From positions 1 to 46,261 of the IMG/VR virus record IMGVR_UViG_3300008807_000161: DNA of 46,261 nucleotides; one strand, given 5' to 3'. The DNA comes from a virus. Both the position numbers and the translations under genes were made by a program. The first letter of the stretch is position 1; every line of letters starts with the position of its first letter. Below, piece by piece: positions 1 to 16,731 of the stretch. A model generated the notes under the pieces. The model did not search any database. It saw nothing but the letters and a program-made list of their open reading frames with translations, and was not told where the DNA came from.

Positions 1-99
1 GCCGAGAACCCCAACGCCCCCGCGCTGATCAAGCTGCGCACGTCAGCAGCGTTGATTCGCCAAATCCAAAAGATCGCGCCGATGCTCGACGATACGCGC
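1..99. repeat. Terminal direct repeat, copy 1 of 2 (identical to 46163..46261). Most simply the assembly overlap of a circular or terminally redundant genome.
   Basis: The first 99 nt (gccgagaaccccaacgcc...gatacgcgc) recur exactly as the last 99 nt of the window. Confidence 0.95.
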
Positions 100-309
100 A
101 CGGTGCTGACCGAGTTGCAGGACGTGATTGATGTGCATGGCGCAATCACCGATGATGACCTGCTGCGCCTTGGGGTCAGCGCCGCCCAGGTGGCGAGCTT
201 GCAGGCGTTTCTGACCAAGCTCTTTGAATTTATGGACAACTCGACGCAGACACGCAAGCCCTACCGCACGACCATCAACTCTGTGCGGCGCGTCGGAGCG
301 CAATTATGA
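1..309 (+). CDS. C-terminal part of a junction-spanning hypothetical protein. The gene starts at ATG 46127 and the frame is continuous across the circular junction, giving about 114 aa.
   Basis: Frame 1 is open from nt 1 (AENPNAPALIKLRTSAALIRQIQK...). The same peptide is read from ATG 46127, and 46214 (= 52 + 46162) is in frame with 46127. Confidence 0.7.
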   Translation, partial: AENPNAPALIKLRTSAALIRQIQKIAPMLDDTRTVLTELQDVIDVHGAITDDDLLRLGVSAAQVASLQAFLTKLFEFMDNSTQTRKPYRTTINSVRRVGAQL

Positions 310-374
310 GTATCGTCAATAGTAAGGTTCGCCGTCAACAGCGGCGCAATCATCCATCATCTATAGGAGAAAGT

Positions 375-5427: not shown

Positions 5428-5772
5428 TCAGTCTTGCTTCTGCCCCTGGGCCAAAAACTTCATCTCCGCACGCTGCGCGCCAAAGTTGATGGTGTACTCA
5501 ACCAGGTTGGCGGCGCGAATCTGGCGCAAGTGCTTGATCACGTCCAGGTTGGTGGCGGCGTGGCATAAGCTCCGCAGTTCGCCCATCGTGACCACAAAAT
5601 GCGTGCCAAATGTCTTGTTCTTTGCCAGCAGCTTGGCGGCCAGCTTCTTGGCGGCTACGGGCATTTGCGCGTGGGCGATGGCCTTGACAATGGCATCACG
5701 CGGGGTTGGGGTCGGTGGTGGCGTCCATTCGACTGGGGTGACGGTTGGTTCAGCATCTTGGGTGATGTTCAT
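5428..5772 (-). CDS. Hypothetical protein (114 aa).
   Basis: ORF 5428..5805 trimmed to ATG 5772 (MNITQDAEPT), just after the upstream stop at 5775. The alternative start at 5805 is not excluded. Confidence 0.55.
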   Translation of the reverse strand: MNITQDAEPTVTPVEWTPPPTPTPRDAIVKAIAHAQMPVAAKKLAAKLLAKNKTFGTHFVVTMGELRSLCHAATNLDVIKHLRQIRAANLVEYTINFGAQRAEMKFLAQGQKQD

Positions 5773-5774
5773 GG

Positions 5775-6179
5775 TTATCCAATTCTTTCCTGTTTGTAGC
5801 CCCACTGGAGCAGCGAATTCACGAGGCCGGTTTTGTCAATCAGTTCAGCGACGAACTCAAGCATGGACTCTGCGACTTCGGCCTGTCGGGTAGCGGCTTC
5901 GGCCTGAGCAATGGCGGCGTGCATCATGGCTTGCTTGTAGGCACGATCTTCGTAGACCTGGCGATCCACGATGTCGCTGAAACGGACGCGGTCGTCATTG
6001 ATGCGATGCTCGAATTCAGCCATGTGGCGGCGCGCCGCCTTGAGATGATGGGTCTCGGACGGTTCGGGCTTTTCGGGCGGCGGCGTTGGGCGGGGCTGTT
6101 GCGTCAATCCATCGTAGTACTTGGCTGCCGCTAGCAAGGCGGCGTCATTGTCAGTGAGATATTCATATTCCGTGTGCAT
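5775..6179 (-). CDS. Hypothetical protein (134 aa).
   Basis: Clean ORF with a Pro-rich linker followed by a helical C-terminus. Confidence 0.6.
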   Translation of the reverse strand: MHTEYEYLTDNDAALLAAAKYYDGLTQQPRPTPPPEKPEPSETHHLKAARRHMAEFEHRINDDRVRFSDIVDRQVYEDRAYKQAMMHAAIAQAEAATRQAEVAESMLEFVAELIDKTGLVNSLLQWGYKQERIG

Positions 6180-6201: not shown

Positions 6202-6642
6202 TTATTCCATCCAACTCACGCAGCCGTTCGTGCTGCATGAGGCGTGGCAATGGCCGTTATAGGCGATGCTGAAACCGAGTGTGCCGGTGTTGCAGATGGG
6301 GCAAGAGATTCTCCCCTGCACATTGCGGGTCGGCTTGCCGTTCGCCTTGAGATAATCAGTGATGGCGGCGCGGGCGGTCATGTATCGAATACCCGCGTCC
6401 CTGAGATGCTCAACTTGGGCTGCGATTTCTTCCGGCGTGGGCCACTCGCGCAAAGCGCACTCGGCGACCACATCCTCTTTGAAATGGGTGCGCAGACAGG
6501 GCAGGCGGTTCAGCATACCTGGGCGGCTGTCGTCACCCAGTTGCGCGTAATTGACTCCGGCGCGGCAAGTTTCGCTTCGTCCTGTGCCGGTGTAATGCTT
6601 GCACCAGCCGTTGATTTGTTCTTCAAGTGTCTTGGGTGGCAT
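6202..6642 (-). CDS. Cys-rich (zinc-ribbon-like) hypothetical protein.
   Basis: C-terminal CPICNTG...CHASCSTNGC, plus several N-terminal Cys. Confidence 0.6.
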   Translation of the reverse strand: MPPKTLEEQINGWCKHYTGTGRSETCRAGVNYAQLGDDSRPGMLNRLPCLRTHFKEDVVAECALREWPTPEEIAAQVEHLRDAGIRYMTARAAITDYLKANGKPTRNVQGRISCPICNTGTLGFSIAYNGHCHASCSTNGCVSWME

Positions 6643-8994: not shown

Positions 8995-9014
8995 ATCTTT
9001 TCGCTTGAAAAGAT
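8995..9014. promoter_or_regulatory. Operator OL-a, a perfect 20-bp palindrome ATCTTTTCGCTTGAAAAGAT.
   Basis: The 8-bp arms ATCTTTTC / GAAAAGAT are perfect. It overlaps the -10 and the predicted start of the leftward promoter. The 16-bp core is identical to the reverse complement of 11354..11369. Confidence 0.75.
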
Positions 9015-9041
9015 TATACCTAATTTCTTTTCGATTGTCAA
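9013..9041 (-). promoter_or_regulatory. Leftward early promoter (PL-like), consensus TTGACA-N17-TATAAT.
   Basis: Plus strand has ATTATA at 9013..9018 and TGTCAA at 9036..9041 with a 17-nt spacer. On the minus strand this reads TTGACA-N17-TATAAT. Confidence 0.8.
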
Positions 9042-9044
9042 GTG
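9025..9044. promoter_or_regulatory. Operator OL-b (14/20 match), overlapping the -35.
   Basis: TTCTTTTCGATTGTCAAGTG. Its centre is 30 bp from OL-a. Confidence 0.5.
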
Positions 9045-9054
9045 CCAAAATGCA

Positions 9055-9074
9055 AAGTATTCGCTCGAAAAGAT
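9055..9074. promoter_or_regulatory. Operator OL-c (15/20 match), upstream of the -35.
   Basis: AAGTATTCGCTCGAAAAGAT. Its centre is 60 bp from OL-a. Confidence 0.55.
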
Positions 9075-9157: not shown

Positions 9158-10108
9158 CTAGAGATTGTCCACTGCGCCAAATTGTTCGTGCGCTGTCTGT
9201 AAATCGTCGTCAACCAACTTGACGTAGCGGTTGATGACGCTTAGGTCACTGTGGCCTAATAGCCGCTGCAAAGCTAAAACGTTCATGCCATTACGAAGGC
9301 AGTTGAGGGCAAAGGCGCGCCGGAAACTATGGGGACTCGGTTCGGGGATGCCAGCATCCTCGGCGCGTCGCCGCAATATCTGGCGTATGCCATCCTGATT
9401 TAACCGTTTGCCGTCCCGCGCACTAATCCAAAGCCCCTCCGTCGCCTTGCGCTTTTCGGTGCGTTCTATGTACCCCAAAAACGCTTCACGCAACCGTAGA
9501 TAGGCCATCAACGCACGGCGCGTCGTTGCGCCCATAAAGACGGCGCGCGCCTTGCCACCCTTGCCACGTCGAATCTGCACGGCGCCATTCTTCATGTCGA
9601 GATCGGTCACAACCAGAGCCGTCATCTCTGCTTTACGGATGCCCGTGTCGAGTAGCAACAGAAGCAATGCGCGGTCACGTTCCCCGGCCAGCGTTCTGCG
9701 CTCACAGGCTGCCAGCATCCTTTGGAAATGTTCGGTTGAAATAGGGTCAAGTGGTTCGATCTTGGGGAGCGCAACCTTTACCTTTTTGGCTGGATTGCGC
9801 CAATTCAGGCCATCATATTCGATTTCAAACCAATTCAGATACGCTTTGACCGAGCGGTAAATGTTCGCCAGTCCACCGGCGTTGTGACCGGCCTCTTCCA
9901 GACTCAACACAAAGAGCCTGAGCAAGTTTGCGGTGATCTGCTGGGTTGCTGTGACCTCGTGGCTGTAACAAAAAGTGGCAAATCGAGCTAGGCAGCTTTT
10001 ATGCCAACCTAGCGTAGACTTCGATACCTTGCGGATTCGACGCTCTAACAGAAAATCTTGTATCTCTTGTTCTAGCCGTGGCGTATGGTCGTCTGTTCTA
10101 TTTGTCAT
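9158..10108 (-). CDS. int: Tyrosine recombinase / phage integrase.
   Basis: LLLDTGIRKAE (Arg), HSFRRAFA (His-x-x-Arg), LLGHSDLSVINRYV (His, catalytic Tyr), plus an N-terminal SAM-like core-binding domain. Confidence 0.9.
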   Translation of the reverse strand: MTNRTDDHTPRLEQEIQDFLLERRIRKVSKSTLGWHKSCLARFATFCYSHEVTATQQITANLLRLFVLSLEEAGHNAGGLANIYRSVKAYLNWFEIEYDGLNWRNPAKKVKVALPKIEPLDPISTEHFQRMLAACERRTLAGERDRALLLLLLDTGIRKAEMTALVVTDLDMKNGAVQIRRGKGGKARAVFMGATTRRALMAYLRLREAFLGYIERTEKRKATEGLWISARDGKRLNQDGIRQILRRRAEDAGIPEPSPHSFRRAFALNCLRNGMNVLALQRLLGHSDLSVINRYVKLVDDDLQTAHEQFGAVDNL

Positions 10109-10181
10109 AGGCGGTCGCTACCCAAAATGGCTTATGCAGCAACCGCCACTCGACTAAAACCTGTCCACCTCACCACATAAG

Positions 10182-10223
10182 TAGCCCCGGTGTGATTCGA
10201 ACACACGACCATCCGCTTAGAAG
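10182..10223 (-). other. attP core candidate: the 3' half of a tRNA-Arg(UCU) (anticodon loop to discriminator).
   Basis: Minus strand reads CTTCTAA-GCGGA-TGGTC-GTGTG-TTCGAAT-CACAC-CGGGGCT-A. These parts are the anticodon loop (TCT), the 3' anticodon stem, the variable loop, the T arm with the canonical TTCGAAT loop, the 3' acceptor strand and the discriminator. The 5' flank (CTCTG) cannot pair with GCGGA, so there is no 5' half. Confidence 0.7.
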
Positions 10224-10299
10224 CAGAGAAAAGGGCAAAACGCTGCGGAAAACAGGCATTTATCGGTGTGGGGCTGCCACGGGTTGATTAGAACAAAGA

Positions 10300-10336
10300 C
10301 CATCTGCCACGGCTTTTTTGCAGAGGTGGCGGATGG
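10300..10336 (-). terminator. Hairpin downstream of the small minus-strand ORF. Weak terminator candidate or part of the attP arm.
   Basis: CCATCTGCCAC (10300..10310) and GTGGCGGATGG (10326..10336) give an 11-bp stem with one mismatch or wobble and a 15-nt loop. On the minus strand it is followed by TCTTTGTTCT. Confidence 0.3.
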
Positions 10337-10347
10337 TTGTGGATTGA

Positions 10348-10482
10348 CTATTTTATTTGGACGGGTTCAAAGCGCACGTCCAGTAGAGCCGGTGGCTCTA
10401 TGTCTTGTTGCGCCCGCGCTGTGAAGGTTGCGACACTGAGCAAGATTGTTGCTGCGAGAGCGGCAATCCATAATTTTCTCAT
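10348..10482 (-). CDS. Small ORF (44 aa) with a signal-peptide-like N-terminus, below the ORF-track cutoff.
   Basis: MRKLWIAALAATILLSVATFTARAQQDIEPPALLDVRFEPVQIK. The SD is weak (AAAGGT). The region has lower GC and lies between attP and the repressor. Confidence 0.3.
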   Translation of the reverse strand: MRKLWIAALAATILLSVATFTARAQQDIEPPALLDVRFEPVQIK

Positions 10483-10505
10483 GATACGCCATACCTTTTG
10501 ACCTA

Positions 10506-10533
10506 TTGACAAACCTTATCATTCCGCTACAAT
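10506..10533 (+). promoter_or_regulatory. Near-consensus rightward promoter in the int-repressor gap.
   Basis: TTGACA (10506..10511), 16-nt spacer, TACAAT (10528..10533). Confidence 0.65.
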
Positions 10534-10548
10534 TGATCAAAGAGTTCA

Positions 10549-10560
10549 GAACAAATGTTC
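10549..10560. promoter_or_regulatory. Cheo-type LexA (SOS) box candidate, GAAC-N4-GTTC.
   Basis: GAACAAATGTTC is a perfect palindrome, and the flanked form is AGAACAAATGTTCC. It lies roughly +8 to +20 from the predicted start of the 10506..10533 promoter. Confidence 0.5.
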
Positions 10561-10587
10561 CATGCCTCACAGGAGAACACGCGCCGC

Positions 10588-10815
10588 ATGGCAAAAAAAT
10601 CTAATACCCCCGGCAAGCCCACTGACGGCAAGGGCAAAGACACAAACACTGCCAAGCCGCAAAAAAAGAAAACGACGGAACGGGACGCCGATTCGAGGCG
10701 CACTCGTCCATCTCGACGCGCGTACAGCTTTTTTGTTGCCAGCATCCCGTCTGAGCGACAAGAAAAACAAATGCGGGGAATCTTCGCCTGGCTTGCTCGC
10801 CTACGCTGCGGGTAA
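10588..10815 (+). CDS. Small lysine/arginine-rich ORF (75 aa) convergent on the repressor gene. Antirepressor candidate, or a non-coding antisense transcript.
   Basis: ATG 10588 lies 12 nt after AGGAG (10571..10575). Sequence is MAKKSNTPGKPTDGKGKDTNTAKPQKKKTTERD... Its 3' end overlaps the repressor 3' end by 15 nt. The coding status is uncertain. Confidence 0.35.
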   Translation: MAKKSNTPGKPTDGKGKDTNTAKPQKKKTTERDADSRRTRPSRRAYSFFVASIPSERQEKQMRGIFAWLARLRCG

Positions 10816-11340
10816 TTGCGGTGCGCTTTTGGGCGGCTGGTCACTATTTCCATAGACTCTCTGATCAAGTCGCCGCAACGTTTCCATAACCAGATCGGTT
10901 TGTTCTGGCCCCGCAATCTCGTCCCCGTAGTCAAGCATCATCTCGATCAACTCTTGCCGAGCCATGCGTCGAATCTCTTCGCTCGATTCCACAAACCCTT
11001 TTGCTACAATATACAGTTCGTAGTTGCGCCCCCGATCCAGTTGACGCATAAACTCCACCACCTCGGCTGCAAAATCCGGCAGAGGGGGTGCGTCACTTGG
11101 CTCTGGATTCCCGGATCGCCCACTCAAATAGTCGGATGATGTAGGGAACCCGCGCGCAATCTTCTCCACGGTGTCAGAGCGCGGATTTTGCCGATTGCCA
11201 CTGAGAATGTTAGATATGCTGCCTTCGCTGACGCCGGATGCTCGGCTCAAGTCTGCGACAGACATTCCCTTGATGCGTAATAAGTCTTCTATTCGATCCG
11301 CTACGATAGACCTCTGTTTTGCCATATCACCATAATACAT
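10801..11340 (-). CDS. CI-like repressor: XRE-family HTH with a helical C-terminal domain and no S24 peptidase domain.
   Basis: HTH segment LLRIKGMSVADLSRASGVSEGSISNILSGNRQNPRSDTVEKIARGF. It is divergent from the Cro-like gene across the operators. The start may be ATG 11340 or ATG 11325 (MAKQRS). Confidence 0.8.
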   Translation of the reverse strand: MYYGDMAKQRSIVADRIEDLLRIKGMSVADLSRASGVSEGSISNILSGNRQNPRSDTVEKIARGFPTSSDYLSGRSGNPEPSDAPPLPDFAAEVVEFMRQLDRGRNYELYIVAKGFVESSEEIRRMARQELIEMMLDYGDEIAGPEQTDLVMETLRRLDQRVYGNSDQPPKSAPQLPAA

Positions 11341-11361
11341 AATCTGGCCCTACCTTTTCAA
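11332..11361 (-). promoter_or_regulatory. Candidate maintenance promoter (PRM-like) that could give a leaderless repressor mRNA.
   Basis: Minus strand reads TTGAAA (11361..11356), 18 nt, TATTAT (11337..11332), GGTGAT, then ATG at 11325. The -35 lies inside operator OR-a. Confidence 0.3.
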
Positions 11362-11371
11362 GCGAAAAGCA
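11352..11371. promoter_or_regulatory. Operator OR-a, a perfect 16-bp palindromic core CTTTTCAAGCGAAAAG.
   Basis: The core at 11354..11369 is the exact reverse complement of the OL-a core at 8997..9012. Confidence 0.75.
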
Positions 11372-11385
11372 TTGTTGCCGCGAAG

Positions 11386-11405
11386 TTCTTGACGAATGAA
11401 AAGTT
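11386..11405. promoter_or_regulatory. Operator OR-b (14/20), overlapping the -35 of the rightward promoter.
   Basis: TTCTTGACGAATGAAAAGTT. Confidence 0.5.
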
Positions 11406-11417
11406 TTGATCTATTAT
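11389..11417 (+). promoter_or_regulatory. Rightward early promoter (PR-like), TTGACG-N17-TATTAT.
   Basis: TTGACG at 11389..11394, a 17-nt spacer, then TATTAT at 11412..11417, followed by the GGAGGG SD and ATG 11450. Confidence 0.75.
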
Positions 11418-11435
11418 TATTTCAATCGAAAAGAA
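11416..11435. promoter_or_regulatory. Operator OR-c (14/20), overlapping the -10 and start of the rightward promoter.
   Basis: ATTATTTCAATCGAAAAGAA. Its centre is 30 bp from OR-b. Confidence 0.5.
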
Positions 11436-11449
11436 ACGGAGGGTTTACG

Positions 11450-11671
11450 ATGTCTGAAATCGAACGGCTCGACAACTGGATGCGCGAACACGGCTACAGC
11501 AAGCGCACGATGGCAGAAGCAGTCGGTATGAGCTATGACGGCTTTTATCAAATCTTTTGGCGCAAGAAGATCAGTCCCGGCTTCAAGTTGCGTTTTATTA
11601 ACCGCTTTGGTGCTGATGCCGCAGATCGCGTTTTTGACAAGCCAGCACTCCCTCGACTCGAACCCGTGTAG
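11450..11671 (+). CDS. Cro-like small HTH regulator (73 aa).
   Basis: ORF 11396..11671 trimmed to ATG 11450, which follows ACGGAGGG. Sequence is MSEIERLDNWMREHGYSKRTMAEAVGMSYDGFYQIF. It is divergent from the repressor. Confidence 0.75.
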   Translation: MSEIERLDNWMREHGYSKRTMAEAVGMSYDGFYQIFWRKKISPGFKLRFINRFGADAADRVFDKPALPRLEPV

Positions 11672-11675
11672 TCTC

Positions 11676-11707
11676 CCTGTCACTCAGAATAGCGACTGAC
11701 TGACAGG
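11676..11707 (+). other. Stem-loop in the gap after the Cro-like gene.
   Basis: CCTGTCA (11676..11682) pairs with TGACAGG (11701..11707). An alternative stem is GTCACTCAG / CTGACTGAC. No U-run follows. Confidence 0.35.
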
Positions 11708-11766
11708 CCATCAATACATTTGCAGCGAACCTGCATCAAAACTGTATCTGAAAGGACAAAAGCAAA

Positions 11767-12075
11767 ATGCAACACAATCTTGATCCAGCGTTGGGACAAA
11801 TCGCCTTACCGCTTCTCCTCGCTATCGCCGTGCTGATTTACGGCGTCCTGCACGGCGCGCTGATTGTGTGGGTGTGGCGCAACCGTGAACCCCTCATCAT
11901 TCCGACGCTGCTCTTTATGAGTCCGGTTGGCGTTGGTGCTTGCGTCTTGGCGACCGTGCCATTCGTCGGCTGGACAGCGGCGTTGGCGGTCAGTATCGCG
12001 TTGGCCGTGGGGTTCACGCCAGTGGTGCTGATCGTCGGCTGGGCGATTTTCAACCGCCAGGAGCGTGGCCTATGA
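11767..12075 (+). CDS. Integral membrane protein (about 3 TM helices).
   Basis: Hydrophobic segments LPLLLAIAVLIYGVLHGALIVWVW, IIPTLLFMSPVGVGACVLATVPFVGW and ALAVSIALAVGFTPVVLIVGWAIF. Confidence 0.7.
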   Translation: MQHNLDPALGQIALPLLLAIAVLIYGVLHGALIVWVWRNREPLIIPTLLFMSPVGVGACVLATVPFVGWTAALAVSIALAVGFTPVVLIVGWAIFNRQERGL

Positions 12076-12278
12076 ACGCTCGGCGACAAGTGGGCGGCTA
12101 TGCGTGGCGTGACGAGTTGGAGGGCGTCCGTCGTCATTGCGACGATGTGGCACGAGGATTGACCGAATTGAGCAAACATGCTCGCACGGTCGAAGTGTCA
12201 AACCTGATTACTCGGTTGGTGGTGTCGAATTCGCAGATCGCGCTCGCCGTGATGGATTTACGGGATTACAAGCCATGA
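12072..12278 (+). CDS. Hypothetical protein (68 aa).
   Basis: ATG 12072 overlaps the upstream TGA (ATGA). This is ORF 11940..12278 trimmed. Confidence 0.55.
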   Translation: MNARRQVGGYAWRDELEGVRRHCDDVARGLTELSKHARTVEVSNLITRLVVSNSQIALAVMDLRDYKP

Positions 12279-12631
12279 ACGCTATTCAACCTAGCCTCTT
12301 TGAAATTCAGCCAACTGTCACACCGCAATATGCCCGCGAAGCGACGATCCAGGAACGCTTTGACGCTTGGATTGAAGCGAATCCAACCTTTTGGCGGGCG
12401 TTTGTGGGTCTGTGTTTGCAAATGCGCCAACAGGGGATGCGCCGCTGGGGGTCTAAGGCAGCGGTGGAAGTGCTGCGCTATGCGGCGTACACGCAGACCA
12501 TCGGGGACGGTTTTAAAATTCCGAACGATTACAGTTCGCGACTGGCACGAAAAGCTATGCGCGAAGTCCCCGAACTGAGTGATTTTTTCGAGTGCCGTGA
12601 ACTTCGCGAACAAGGGTGCAATCATGACTAA
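12275..12631 (+). CDS. Hypothetical protein (118 aa).
   Basis: ATG 12275 is in an ATGA overlap. Sequence is MNAIQPSLFEIQPTVTPQYAREATIQERFDAW... No family recognised. Confidence 0.6.
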   Translation: MNAIQPSLFEIQPTVTPQYAREATIQERFDAWIEANPTFWRAFVGLCLQMRQQGMRRWGSKAAVEVLRYAAYTQTIGDGFKIPNDYSSRLARKAMREVPELSDFFECRELREQGCNHD

Positions 12632-12767
12632 TCAAGAGCATAGCAAACAGACTGAGCGCGAAGCGTTGGATTGGGTATACGTCGCTATCGCCACCGCTAT
12701 CATCGTCGCGTTGATTTTGGCCGCAGTTGGCGGCCACCATGTCGTTTCGTTGGGGGTGCAGCCATGA
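12624..12767 (+). CDS. Small single-pass membrane protein (47 aa).
   Basis: ATG 12624. TM segment WVYVAIATAIIVALILAAVGG. Overlaps both neighbouring genes. Confidence 0.5.
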   Translation: MTNQEHSKQTEREALDWVYVAIATAIIVALILAAVGGHHVVSLGVQP

Positions 12768-13015
12768 TTGAACTTACTAAGCGCGAATGGATGGTACTGA
12801 CCTGCATCACCACCTATCGACGAGAGCATGGTTATGCGCCCTCGGTCAATGACATCGCCAAGTCCATCGGCAAGCGCGCAGGCGGCACTATCACAGGCGC
12901 GCTACGCAGGCTGGAAGGGAAGGGCGTGATTACCTTTGGACGCAAGAACATTAAATGCCGTCAAGAGCGCGCCATTGGTTTGATTCCAGGGGTTTGGGTG
13001 GGGGTGAAACTGTGA
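12764..13015 (+). CDS. LexA-N-terminal-type winged-helix DNA-binding protein (DNA-binding domain only, 83 aa).
   Basis: MIELTKREWMVLTCITTYRREHGYAPSVNDIAKSIGKRAGGTITGALRRLEGKGVITF parallels E. coli LexA residues [55 protein letters not shown]. There is no linker or S24 domain. Confidence 0.65.
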   Translation: MIELTKREWMVLTCITTYRREHGYAPSVNDIAKSIGKRAGGTITGALRRLEGKGVITFGRKNIKCRQERAIGLIPGVWVGVKL

Positions 13016-15573
13016 AGCACGAACGCGCACGAGCTTATGAGGATTTCTTGCGGGGCAAAGTGCAGACCGGCACGGAAACAGGATTCGCAGTTGACCAGAT
13101 GCACCCCTCGCTGTTTGGGCATCAACAAGACGCTATCCGTTGGGCAGCGCGCCGTGGGCGGGCGTTGATCGCCGCTAAATTTGGGCTTGGCAAAACCCGT
13201 ATGCAAGTCGAGTTATTGCGCCAAGCCCATCAGCGCACAGGCAAGCCGGTCTTGGCGATTTGCCCGCTGGGGGTGCGTCATCAATTCGTGGTTGAAGATG
13301 GCCCCGCGATGAGTGTGCAGTTTGCCTATGTGCGGACAGACGCAGAGTTTGAAGCGGCAAGCACGCCGTATCTCATCACCAACTATGAGCGCGTCCGCGA
13401 CGGCAATATCACGACGGCTGCGCTCGGCACGGTGGGCGCGGTGAGTCTTGATGAGGGCGCAATCCTGGGCAATCTTGGCACAAAGACACAAGACCAGTTC
13501 AACATGCTCTTGGCAGAGATTCCCTATCGCTGGGTGGCGACAGCGACGCCAGCGCCGAATGACTATCGCCAGATGATTTACTTTGCCGATTTCCTTGACG
13601 TAATGGATGCAGGGCAGGCGTTAACGCGTTTCTTTGGCCGCAACCCAGACAAGGCGGGCGATCTCCAACTCATGCCGCACATGGAAAAAGACTTTTGGCT
13701 ATGGGTGGCATCGTGGGCTTTGTTCGTCGATACGCCGTCGGATTTGGGCTATTCCGATGATGGCTATGTCATGCCTGAGCTTGACATTCGTTGGCACAGG
13801 ATCACGGCTGACCACGAAAAAGCGTTTGAGATGGTTGATCAATTCGGTCAACGTTTTTTGCTCAAAGACACCGCCGCCGGCGTCACCCAAGCCATGAAGG
13901 AAAAGCGCGACAGTCTTGGCGCGCGCGTGGCGACGGCTTTGCAGATTGTTGAGAGCTACGAATCTGAGCAGATGGTCATTTGGTGCAATCTCAACGATGA
14001 ACAGTCTGCGCTTGAGCGCGGTCTCAAGGCGAGGGGCATCACTTATGCCTCGGTGCATGGGTCGCTTGCGCCAGAAGAACAAGAGGAACGGCTCTATCAG
14101 TGGAAAGATCGCCATTGCCGTGTGCTGATTGCCAAGCCATCGATGCTGGGCAGCGGCGTGAACTTGCAGCAAGCGCATGTCGCCATCTATGCCGGTCTGG
14201 ATTTTAAGTTTCGTGACTTTATCCAGTCGGTGCATCGGCTCCAACGCTACGGTCAAACGCAGACCGTAGAACTGCACGCTATCCACACAGATGCCGAGGA
14301 TCACGTTGTCGAAATCCTTATGGGCAAGTGGCGCCAACATGACGCGATGGTGGCACGGATGCGCGGCATTGTGCAGGAGTATGGTCTGACTAACGAGGCG
14401 TTGGCAAGTGAAATGCGCCGCACGCTCGGCGTCACCCGCCAAGAGCGCACGGGACACTTCTACACGATCATCAACAATGACTGCGTGTCAGAAACAATGG
14501 CGATGGCTGATAACTCAGTAGACGAGATTGTGACCAGTATCCCCTTTGGCAATCATTACGAGTATGTTGCCAGTCTCAACGACTTCGGACATAACCCCTC
14601 GGATGCTGATTTTTGGGTACAGATGGATTTCTTGATTCCTGAGCTTCTGCGAGTCCTTAAGCCAGGGCGCATGTGCTGTATTCATGCCAAAGACCGGTTG
14701 CTCTATGGGCATCAAACCCCACACGGCATGATGGAAGTTGACTACTTCACGCATGATTGCGCCCGCGCCTTTCGTAAGCACGGATTTGTCAGCTATGGCG
14801 AAATCTTTATTCCAACCGATGTGGTGCGCGAAAACAACTCTACGAATCGCTTGGGTTGGTCTGAGAACTGCAAAGATTCGTCGAAAATGGGCGTTGGCTT
14901 ATCGGAGAAGGTTTTACTTTTCCGCAAGCCGCAAACGGACAAGACCCGCTCTTATGCCGATGAGCCGGTGCGTAAGGATAAACGCGAGTACAGTCGCGGT
15001 CGCTGGCAGATTGACGCGCATAGTTTGTGGCGGTCGAACGGCCACGCGCTCGAAACGCCAGCCGATAACCCCGCTCTTTTGCAGGGCATGGATGGCAGCC
15101 AAGTCTTTAACTGGTATCGCGAATGGTCGAAAGAAAATCCTTACGACTACCACCAGCATGTCGCCTTCAATGAGGCGATGGGCGACCGCTTGCCCGCCAA
15201 GTTCATGCTTATGCCACCGCAAGCCCCGAATGAGTACGAGGAGACGGCGTGGACAGATGTGCTGTTCATGCGAACGCTAAACATGAGTCAAGCGCGGCGG
15301 CGCGTGGAGAAGCACATTTGCCCGTTGCCCCTGGACATCGTCGAACGGCTGATTGTTCGTTACAGCAATCCAGATGACCTGGTGTTTGACCCCTTTAGCG
15401 GTATCGGCACGACGGGCTACATGGCCGTGAAACTGGGGCGGCGGGCGATTGGCACGGAATTGAATTCGACCTACTTCGAGGCAGCGGTCAAATATCTGCA
15501 AGATGCGGAGATGGAGCGACAGACCGCAACGCTCTTCGACCTCGACACCCTCGCCATCGAAACCGCCGATTAA
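13012..15573 (+). CDS. SNF2-family helicase fused to a beta-class (N6_N4-type) DNA methyltransferase.
   Basis: GTG 13012 is in a GTGA overlap. Helicase motifs are GLGKT, SLDEGA and a helicase-C region SVHGSL...LIAKPSMLGSGVNLQ...HRLQRYGQT. Methyltransferase motif IV-like is VTSIPFG and motif I is FDPFSGIGTTG. The order IV then I indicates the beta class. Confidence 0.8.
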   Translation: MKHERARAYEDFLRGKVQTGTETGFAVDQMHPSLFGHQQDAIRWAARRGRALIAAKFGLGKTRMQVELLRQAHQRTGKPVLAICPLGVRHQFVVEDGPAMSVQFAYVRTDAEFEAASTPYLITNYERVRDGNITTAALGTVGAVSLDEGAILGNLGTKTQDQFNMLLAEIPYRWVATATPAPNDYRQMIYFADFLDVMDAGQALTRFFGRNPDKAGDLQLMPHMEKDFWLWVASWALFVDTPSDLGYSDDGYVMPELDIRWHRITADHEKAFEMVDQFGQRFLLKDTAAGVTQAMKEKRDSLGARVATALQIVESYESEQMVIWCNLNDEQSALERGLKARGITYASVHGSLAPEEQEERLYQWKDRHCRVLIAKPSMLGSGVNLQQAHVAIYAGLDFKFRDFIQSVHRLQRYGQTQTVELHAIHTDAEDHVVEILMGKWRQHDAMVARMRGIVQEYGLTNEALASEMRRTLGVTRQERTGHFYTIINNDCVSETMAMADNSVDEIVTSIPFGNHYEYVASLNDFGHNPSDADFWVQMDFLIPELLRVLKPGRMCCIHAKDRLLYGHQTPHGMMEVDYFTHDCARAFRKHGFVSYGEIFIPTDVVRENNSTNRLGWSENCKDSSKMGVGLSEKVLLFRKPQTDKTRSYADEPVRKDKREYSRGRWQIDAHSLWRSNGHALETPADNPALLQGMDGSQVFNWYREWSKENPYDYHQHVAFNEAMGDRLPAKFMLMPPQAPNEYEETAWTDVLFMRTLNMSQARRRVEKHICPLPLDIVERLIVRYSNPDDLVFDPFSGIGTTGYMAVKLGRRAIGTELNSTYFEAAVKYLQDAEMERQTATLFDLDTLAIETAD

Positions 15574-15597: not shown

Positions 15598-16731
15598 ATG
15601 AAAATCTCTTGCACACAACAGGGGTTAGCTAAAGGCATTGCGATGGTACAGCGCGCTGTGTCGCCGCGTAGCACGCTGCCCGTTCTCGGCAACATTTTGC
15701 TGGAAGCACACGGCGGGCAACTGCGCTTAGTTGCCAGTAACCTGGATATTACATCCGCATGTTGGATCGCGGCGGATATTGTTGAGGAGGGGGCGATTAC
15801 CGTTCCCGCGCGGCTTTTTGGCGAGATGGTGACGAAGTTATTGCCAGGGCGCGTTGACCTTGCGCTTGATGCCAAGACACTCTCGGTGCATCTGACATCC
15901 GGCAATTTCAAGGCGAAGGTGGCGGGGATTGATGCCAACGATTTTCCGCAAACGCAGGGCGATGCGACCGGCGGCATTGAACTGGATGCCAGGCGACTAG
16001 CGGAAATGATTGACCAGGTGGCCTTTGCCGCCACTACCGACCTGTCACGACCGAATCTCATGTGCGTGCAATGTCGCATTGGCGCAAATCTAGCGATGGC
16101 CGCCACCGATGGGTTTCGGCTCGGCGTGCGAAGCGTGCCGCTTGACCCTGGCGCGTCCGACCGCGAGGTGTTGATACCCGCCACAAGCATCAACGAATTG
16201 GGGCGTATCCTTGCCGACGCTGATACCGAAAAGCCGGTGGTGATGAGCGGCGATGCAAGACGCGCCGTTTTTGCGGTCGATGGCAAAGGCAGTGTTTTAC
16301 GCGCCGAATTGTCCACTCAACTTGTTGATGGCAAATATCCTGATTATCGGGCCATCATCCCCAAACACAGCACGACAACCGTTGTGGTCAATAATGCCGC
16401 TCTGTTGCGCTCGCTGCAAATGGCGCGCCTCTTTGCCAAAGGGGATCAGCAGGTCGTCACGTTGACCGCTAATCCGGGCGATTGCCTGAAAGTCTCGGCA
16501 GTCAATGACGCCAACGGGCAGAGTGATGATGCGTTGGAGGCGGAGATCAAGGGCGAACCGGTGACGATTGCGCTGAATGTCAGCTATCTAATCGCTCTAT
16601 GCAGCCGCTTGGACGATGCCGATTTATTGATCGAGATGACGACTGCTAATCGGCCTGTTTCCTTGCGCCCAGCATCGTCTGACCCAGATGAGTTTATCCA
16701 CGTCATTATGCCGATTAACCGCACCAAATAG
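15598..16731 (+). CDS. dnaN: DNA polymerase III beta subunit-like sliding clamp.
   Basis: 377 aa. The N-terminus MKISCTQQGLAKGIAMVQRAVSPRSTLPVLGNILLEA and the overall three-domain length are typical of DnaN. Confidence 0.85.
   Translation: MKISCTQQGLAKGIAMVQRAVSPRSTLPVLGNILLEAHGGQLRLVASNLDITSACWIAADIVEEGAITVPARLFGEMVTKLLPGRVDLALDAKTLSVHLTSGNFKAKVAGIDANDFPQTQGDATGGIELDARRLAEMIDQVAFAATTDLSRPNLMCVQCRIGANLAMAATDGFRLGVRSVPLDPGASDREVLIPATSINELGRILADADTEKPVVMSGDARRAVFAVDGKGSVLRAELSTQLVDGKYPDYRAIIPKHSTTTVVVNNAALLRSLQMARLFAKGDQQVVTLTANPGDCLKVSAVNDANGQSDDALEAEIKGEPVTIALNVSYLIALCSRLDDADLLIEMTTANRPVSLRPASSDPDEFIHVIMPINRTK

Follow-up and report, generated by a model that had tools for sequence, protein, structure and literature searches.

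The stretch of DNA analysed here (hereafter the window) is IMG/VR virus record IMGVR_UViG_3300008807_000161, a whole metagenomic contig of 46,261 nucleotides. Between the integrase gene and the gene of a CI-like repressor it carries a small gene of 75 codons, which converges on the repressor gene, overlaps its 3′ end and is preceded by a promoter, here called P_small, and by a LexA-type box. This module, which may act as a switch for prophage induction, is the subject of the present analysis. Its elements are the following.

10506 to 10533, plus strand: P_small, a sigma-70-type promoter, TTGACA (10506-10511), 16 nt, TACAAT (10528-10533), matching the consensus at 11 of 12 positions
10548 to 10561, both strands: LexA-type SOS box AGAACAAATGTTCC, with the core GAAC-N4-GTTC at 10549-10560
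10571 to 10575, plus strand: ribosome-binding site AGGAG, 12 nt upstream of the ATG
10588 to 10815, plus strand: small gene, 75 amino acids, with a basic disordered N-terminal tail and a conserved two-helix C-terminal core
10673 to 10690, minus strand: weak terminator-like hairpin and U-tract for the repressor transcript, inside the small open reading frame (ORF)
10801 to 10815, both strands: convergent 3′ overlap of the small gene and the repressor gene, 15 nt
10801 to 11340, minus strand: CI-like repressor, with an XRE-type helix-turn-helix (HTH), an APPLP linker and an acidic all-helical C-terminal domain, without an S24 peptidase domain

A preliminary description of the window had already read the promoter with its 16-nt spacer, the AGGAG motif, the 75-codon ORF and the 15-nt overlap in this way, and all of them are present. 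So is the perfect palindrome that it placed just downstream of the promoter (GAACAAATGTTC, 10549-10560), which covers positions +9 to +20 if transcription is assumed to start about 7 nt after the −10 hexamer. The lower GC content that it mentioned was also recovered, with values of 0.49-0.52 over positions 10001-11500 against about 0.57 elsewhere in the window.

The small gene and the LexA-type box

A homologue search with the repressor returned 15 relatives of 57-77% identity, whose contigs were fetched for synteny; 33 loci were fetched in total, including the Listeria lexA promoter as a control, and are designated below by their locus numbers. Scans with the repressor alignment added one new locus from metagenomes and none from IMG/VR, and among genomes hit only a metagenome-assembled genome (MAG) of Caldilineaceae. 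The contigs of the relatives carry the same module, consisting of an XRE repressor, a divergent cro-like gene, homologues of which were present in all related loci, and a small gene convergent with the repressor gene and overlapping its 3′ end.

L001/L003: prophage lying at one end of a 180-kb contig
L002: prophage beside a tRNA fragment in the Caldilineaceae MAG
L013, L014, L018-L021 and L024: syntenic loci with the same module
L029: 82%-identical fragment with the same module
L031: same module, with a repressor 47% identical and different operators

Homologues of the small gene were found at the same position in L002, L003, L013, L014, L018, L024, L029 and L031. These eight syntenic relatives align through a C-terminal motif, R..RR.Y..FV..LP..RQE..LR.LF.WL, which reads R..RR.Y..FV..IP.ERQE..MR.IF.WL in the window, while the length of the Lys/Arg-rich N-terminal tail varies. 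The motif persists although synonymous sites are saturated between most lineages; in the two pairs that are not saturated, the ratio of non-synonymous to synonymous changes (pN/pS) was 0.53 and 0.45. A profile search of 1.84 billion representatives gave 28 clusters of proteins of 52-142 amino acids sharing the motif. A word-indexed search of 5.8 billion proteins with the 75-residue protein returned only the protein itself, and the family was recovered by synteny and profile searches only. Searches of Pfam, PHROGs and the PDB (by sequence) and with Foldseek gave nothing informative. The protein has no transmembrane segment, its fold matches no known one, and by neither sequence nor fold does it belong to the Tum, Ant/Bro-N, Sar, Qtip or Coi families. 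The AlphaFold2 model has a disordered region (residues 1-35) followed by two helices (residues 43-52 and 55-74) with predicted local distance difference test (pLDDT) values of 80-93. The protein is very basic, with an isoelectric point of about 11; its charge ranges from +10 to +15 among members of the box-bearing clade and is +9 in L031. Judging from its conservation, the small ORF is a genuine gene, and the family to which it belongs is new and unannotated.

The gene runs from the ATG at 10588 to the stop codon at 10813-10815. The metagenome gene call places the start at another ATG (10555-10557), inside the box, for a product of 86 amino acids. The start at 10588 is to be preferred, because the other lineages share an equivalent MAK/MPK start whereas the 10555 start is absent there. 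A GGAG motif 11-12 nt upstream of the ATG is also found in L002, L013 and L014.

The box, taken in the window alone, is not significant. One perfect GAAC-N4-GTTC was found for 0.63 expected, at least one occurred in 47 of 100 shuffled sequences, and boxes with one mismatch were not enriched (13 found, 16.6 expected). Its significance comes from its conservation across relatives. A box lies between the −10 hexamer and the ribosome-binding site in six lineages, the window and five relatives, four of the latter having a perfect copy and one a GAAC-N4-TTTC variant.

Window: AGAACAAATGTTCC
L029: AGAACGAATGTTCT
L002: CGAACAAGTGTTCT
L003: AGAACAAATTTTCT
L013: AGAACAAAAGTTCT
L014: AGAACGTTTGTTCT

Upstream of the box, all six lineages have a −35 hexamer of the form TTG... 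and a −10 hexamer of the form TA...T; the box follows the −10 at 13-15 nt in five of them and abuts it in L003. When sequences were anchored on the box, pairwise identity, computed without L029, was 0.95 over the eight core positions, 0.53 in the spacer and 0.28 in the 25-nt flanks, the last value being close to random. Among the 33 fetched loci, the only perfect boxes were those of P_small, each unique in its locus, and one in the Listeria lexA control. With this pattern the box has the marks of an operator under selection, of the LexA type known from Gram-positive bacteria and Chloroflexi, which bears out the assignment made in the preliminary description from the palindrome in the window. 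That description had also asked whether the ORF, or only the promoter and box, is conserved in related phages: both are, with the box missing in L018/L024 and in L031.

The same data dispose of the most trivial explanation, in which a chance palindrome and a chance promoter would precede a spurious ORF. One box in the window is indeed about what chance predicts, but box, promoter and ORF are each conserved amid flanks that cannot be aligned, and the box is unique in each locus. This refutes the explanation, and we regard its probability as negligible.

The half-sites of the box are invariant and do not covary. Together with the absence of any meaningful Rfam match and an ordinary folding energy, this argues that the conserved element is bound as DNA by a protein rather than folded as an RNA hairpin, and an RNA element in the box region, considered as a candidate, was rejected on the same three grounds. 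LexA boxes of this type usually extend the core to AGAAC or CGAAC on one side and to GTTCT or GTTCG on the other. In Firmicutes and Actinobacteria, GAAC-N4-GTTC serves as the LexA box (PMC3323433). The box of the window closely resembles those of the Listeria lexA promoter, such as AGAACAAACGTTCG. Fernandez de Henestrosa et al. (J Bacteriol 2002) reportedly described the same box for LexA of Dehalococcoides ethenogenes, a Chloroflexota bacterium.

An ORF of 44 codons with a signal peptide lies at 10348-10482 on the minus strand, divergent from P_small. Neither inspection nor a promoter scan revealed acceptable hexamers for a divergent promoter of this ORF that would share the box. In L029 (positions 2-313, minus strand) the same frame continues for at least 104 codons, and the 44-codon ORF looks like a truncated gene.

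The repressor, its operators and the convergent overlap

The preliminary description had placed the repressor at 10801-11340 and noted an XRE HTH and no S24 autopeptidase domain. The ORF and the domain content stand: Pfam matched HTH_3 (E value 1e-9) and related XRE families, that is HTH domains only, with no S24 domain. The AlphaFold2 model consists of a five-helix HTH (residues 12-73), the APPLP linker and two long helices (89-141 and 145-167), with no β-rich S24 fold, and the hits that Foldseek gave for this model are HTH proteins, among them SinR from the SinR-SinI complex. A repressor without an S24 domain is not expected to cleave itself. The start codon, in contrast, has probably to be moved to the ATG at 11325, for a protein of 174 amino acids. 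We noticed on the minus strand a TTGAAA and a TATTAT hexamer separated by 18 nt, followed after 6 nt by this ATG, which corresponds to Met6 of the longer ORF and is nearly invariant in the relatives. As with lambda cI, the repressor mRNA is probably leaderless; with such a start at 11325, the annotated ATG at 11340 would precede the start of the transcript.

Upstream of the repressor gene lies a divergent switch region, and a second promoter with the same type of operators is found on the other side of the integrase gene.

11332 to 11433, both strands: divergent switch region with PRM-like and PR-like promoters and three CI operators
11361 to 11332, minus strand: PRM-like promoter
11389 to 11417, plus strand: PR-like promoter
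11354 to 11369: CI operator CTTTTCAAGCGAAAAG
11388 to 11403: CI operator CTTGACGAATGAAAAG
11418 to 11433: CI operator TATTTCAATCGAAAAG
11450 to 11671, plus strand: cro-like gene, the first of the rightward lytic operon and co-directional with the small gene
8997 to 9072, minus strand: PL-like promoter region, TTGACA, 17 nt, TATAAT at 9041-9013, matching the consensus at 12 of 12 positions

The PL-like promoter carries three operators of the CI type, arranged as at PR, and its copy of CTTTTCAAGCGAAAAG at 8997-9012 is identical to the operator at 11354-11369. All three operators of the cI-cro region follow the pattern CTTTTC-N4-GAAAAG, and their conservation extends to L002, L003, L013, L014 and L017. 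P_small carries none of the CI operators found at PR and PL. A near-consensus promoter without CI operators must be silenced in the lysogen by another factor. Binding of CI to the box itself was considered and rejected, since the dyad of the CI operators is arranged the opposite way and none of them occurs at P_small.

We then turn to the overlap. The 3′ ends of the small gene and of the repressor gene overlap by 15-63 nt in all eight syntenic lineages, and in 8 of the 10 contexts examined. No plus-strand terminator was predicted in the window from 10541 to 13000; on the corresponding strand none was predicted in L002 or L014, and L013 has only a weak site, within the cro gene. On the opposite strand, the weak hairpin at 10673-10690 has a much stronger equivalent in L013 (6611-6636, plus strand). 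The U-tract of the hairpin is the complement of Lys codons of the small protein, and the stem in L013 is the complement of a conserved coding stretch, RRSQRSERR. Hairpins placed inside the small ORF imply that the repressor and the small gene may constrain each other's sequence. The folding of the window region is not exceptional.

This geometry raises an alternative in which the RNA, and not the protein, acts: P_small would oppose the repressor gene by convergent transcription, by collision with or occlusion of PRM, by antisense pairing and by read-through into cro, the peptide being secondary or having another role. Precedents exist in lambda, with its oop RNA, and in phage 186, whose promoters face each other. 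The overlap conserved in eight lineages leaves no room for an intergenic terminator, no terminator is predicted before 13000 while cro and the early genes lie on the same strand, and P_small is near consensus. However, the ORF is conserved as a protein across synonymous saturation, its family also occurs in contexts that are not convergent, and neither an unusual RNA structure nor an Rfam match was found. Antisense transcription, moreover, cannot remove repressor that has already been made. We consider that RNA as the main agent is distinctly unlikely.

The repressors themselves suggest that the small protein may be linked to the C-terminal domain. The charge of this domain is −6 to −12, complementary to that of the basic small protein. 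When the repressors of L024 (782-1306, minus strand) and L018 (362-880, plus strand) were compared, identity was 32% in the N-terminal HTH and 72% in the C-terminal domain, the small proteins being 67% identical. From these sequences it appears that the DNA-binding domain of the L024 repressor was replaced while the C-terminal domain and the small gene stayed together. L031, whose repressor is 47% identical and has different operators, also keeps the small gene. Such a linkage fits a functional pairing of the two.

A candidate induction switch

The organisation of the locus, together with the joint conservation of promoter, box, gene and overlap, suggests a module repressed by host LexA that would induce the prophage through an antirepressor combined with convergent transcription across the repressor gene. 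We regard this reading as the best supported one, and as about evenly poised between right and wrong. In a lysogen, the CI-like repressor would shut PR and PL through its CTTTTC-N4-GAAAAG operators, while host LexA bound to AGAACAAATGTTCC, at +9 to +20, would hold P_small off. Upon DNA damage, cleavage of LexA stimulated by RecA would free P_small. The 75-residue protein would then inactivate the repressor, whose acidic helical C-terminal domain is the probable target, and transcription from P_small, running antisense through the whole repressor gene toward the cro operon, might lower the synthesis of new repressor.

Several points weigh against this reading. The joint inheritance of the C-terminal domain and the small gene is explained equally well by physical adjacency. 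No GAAC-N4-GTTC box is present in the L018/L024 clade or in L031, where both gene and overlap are retained, so the SOS wiring would be a feature of one clade. The LexA motif of Caldilineaceae is assumed from other phyla. As for the protein, its constraint appears only moderate, with pN/pS near 0.5, and it resembles no known antirepressor in any of the sequence and fold searches (Pfam, PHROGs, PDB, Foldseek). Being very basic, it could equally bind nucleic acid. Finally, two members of its family are not placed beside an XRE repressor of this kind: the L022 member lies upstream of a GerE-type regulator, in an element with an integrase and a Prim-Pol, and L030 (4001-4409, plus strand) contains a tandem pair of 62 and 75 amino acids in an operon of small genes. 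The function of the small protein is thus not necessarily repressor-specific. Upstream of the L022 member, around 5770-5850 on the plus strand, we also observed tandem copies of GTGCAGGAACGGTGCACGTA(G/A)A, which look like iterons or operators.

These last contexts, together with the isoelectric point of about 11 and the Lys/Arg tail, lend some weight to an alternative in which the small gene is SOS-induced but has no action on the repressor, its product being a nucleic-acid-binding or host-directed protein, such as a modulator of the cell cycle, of RecA or of recombination, or a directionality factor. The position of the window gene between integrase and repressor would agree with this. The association, however, is with the 3′ end of the repressor gene and not with the integrase, since L002 and L013 have no integrase nearby; the protein has neither a transmembrane segment nor a known fold; and a repressor that cannot be cleaved needs some route to induction, for which no other candidate is found in the vicinity. 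An accessory function of this kind seems unlikely to us, if by no means negligible.

The identity of the factor that reads the box calls for separate consideration, because the phage encodes a LexA-like protein of its own.

12764 to 13015, plus strand: protein of 83 amino acids consisting of a LexA DNA-binding domain (DBD) only (PF01726, E value 4.6e-10)

This protein is 38-41% identical to the LexA N-terminal domain of Listeria and Staphylococcus, weakly matches Thermotoga LexA (3k2z, 18 bits), and has no cleavage or peptidase part. Its gene is translationally coupled to its neighbours in the CI-repressed early lytic operon. No relatives of it were found in IMG/VR, and no homologue in the available sequence of the other box-bearing loci, including L003, where the region from cro to terminase is visible.

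One may then suppose that the box is read by this protein, a genuine homologue of the LexA N-terminal domain, or by another host regulator, rather than by host LexA. But a gene in a CI-repressed operon should be silent in the lysogen, just when P_small must be off, so the LexA-DBD protein is an unlikely keeper of P_small. The lack of a LexA-DBD gene in lineages that keep the box favours a host factor as the binder, and the motif is a textbook LexA box. A reader of the box other than host LexA thus appears highly improbable. The LexA-DBD protein could nevertheless re-close the box after induction, as a non-cleavable mimic of LexA.

With this addition, the host-LexA switch could be extended to a three-layer SOS switch of a kind not previously described, comprising the antirepressor, read-through into cro and the early operon, and damping by the LexA-DBD protein. 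Early genes would then be transcribed from outside the CI-controlled promoter, and the mimic would re-occupy the boxes, close the module and damp the host SOS regulon after commitment. We hold this extended version to be quite improbable as a whole.

Known systems, host and surrounding genome

Small antirepressors controlled by LexA and directed against non-cleavable repressors are an established design (PMC3121763; bioRxiv 10.1101/2025.11.27.690993). Tum of phage 186, GfoA/GfhA of the Gifsy prophages (PMC3121763) and AntC of N15 have, like the window module, a small gene whose promoter carries an SOS box, and a repressor lacking an autocleavage domain. The proposed logic is also alike, LexA cleavage leading to antirepressor and then to induction, which here is read from sequence. 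The small protein of the window has no sequence or fold similarity to these antirepressors, whose boxes are of the proteobacterial CTGT-N8-ACAG type and not GAAC-N4-GTTC. Moreover, their genes are far from the repressor gene, whereas the small gene of the window overlaps the repressor 3′ end convergently.

A closer parallel in box type is found in the Sar-SroF pair of SPbeta-family Bacillus phages (bioRxiv 10.1101/2025.11.27.690993), which also combines a small antirepressor controlled by a LexA box, a GAAC-type host box and a repressor that RecA does not cleave. That study likewise took conservation of the box across relatives as evidence (bioRxiv 10.1101/2025.11.27.690993). The two systems are not homologous: SroF is an integrase-fold repressor, and the repressor of the window is an XRE HTH protein with a helical C-terminal domain. 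In the TF-smORF modules of plasmid-like Vibrio phages (PMC10432266), an orphan protein of about 60 amino acids inactivates cI without proteolysis, which was shown there and is proposed here; a phage transcription factor switches these modules on independently of SOS, while the window module would apparently respond to loss of LexA. In phage GIL01, with its gp7 protein (PMC4551915), and in CTXphi, host LexA acts on a phage promoter, as we propose for P_small, and a small phage protein is involved. In GIL01, however, LexA is itself the lysogeny repressor and gp7 aids its binding, whereas in the window a separate CI-like repressor would hold PR and PL.

The SinR-SinI pair (PDB 1b0n) offers a structural analogy, since there too an XRE HTH protein with a helical oligomerisation domain is opposed by a small two-helix protein. 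An antagonist of the SinI type was nevertheless rejected, as hhalign gave a probability of 0.4% between the small protein and the C-terminal domain of the repressor. SinI, by comparison, is homologous to the C-terminal helices of SinR.

Control by antisense RNAs or convergent promoters is well known in phage switches, as with lambda oop RNA, P22 sar and 186 pR/pL. There, as here, a promoter is directed against a regulatory gene and the RNAs overlap at their 3′ ends. The window has a convergent, overlapping transcript of this kind (15-nt gene overlap, no predicted terminator), but it is not the short non-coding RNA with its own terminator that defines the oop/sar type, since it codes for a conserved protein and lacks a recognisable terminator. 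Unlike in those systems, the target is the maintenance repressor.

The strategy proposed here is a known one, and what is new would be the protein family, the host phylum and the way in which the gene overlaps that of the repressor, which is unusual and conserved. Hardly anything is known of how temperate phages of Chloroflexota decide on induction. Should the host-LexA switch be real, the design of a LexA-controlled antirepressor for a non-cleavable repressor, known from Proteobacteria and Firmicutes, would reach a third phylum, one that branches deeply, a new family of about 28 clusters of small proteins would be added, and indirect evidence would be gained for a GAAC-N4-GTTC SOS box in Caldilineaceae. 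The conserved overlap makes the module a good case for separating the effects of a protein from those of convergent transcription. It is also a compact test system (one box, a 75-residue protein, a 174-residue repressor and two promoters bearing operators) that could be rebuilt in a heterologous reporter.

The host of the window phage is most likely a Caldilineaceae-like bacterium of the Chloroflexota, on the strength of one named genome, the Caldilineaceae MAG in which the related prophage L002 sits. In L002, about 400 nt past the small gene, at approximately 6520-6570, we observed a fragment of a tRNA 3′ end with host-type genes beyond. The fragment is likely to be the boundary of the attachment site; no integrase was found adjacent to it at that end of L002. 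Caldilineaceae relatives of the window phage occur in wastewater metagenomes.

A blastn search against deposited phages gave no match to the window, and no tRNA genes were found in it. Its gene content looks like that of a complete temperate phage. The integrase gene lies at 9158-10108 on the minus strand. The leftward arm includes Lar, an exonuclease and MazG; the rightward arm includes a SNF2-methylase fusion, DnaN, a DnaB-like helicase, a primase, a VRR-NUC nuclease and a lysin, with large ORFs beyond. The fusion is an ORF of 872 amino acids (12955-15573, plus strand) that joins a SNF2-type helicase to an N6/N4 DNA methylase, and the gene for the DNA polymerase III beta clamp lies downstream of it (15598-16731, plus strand).

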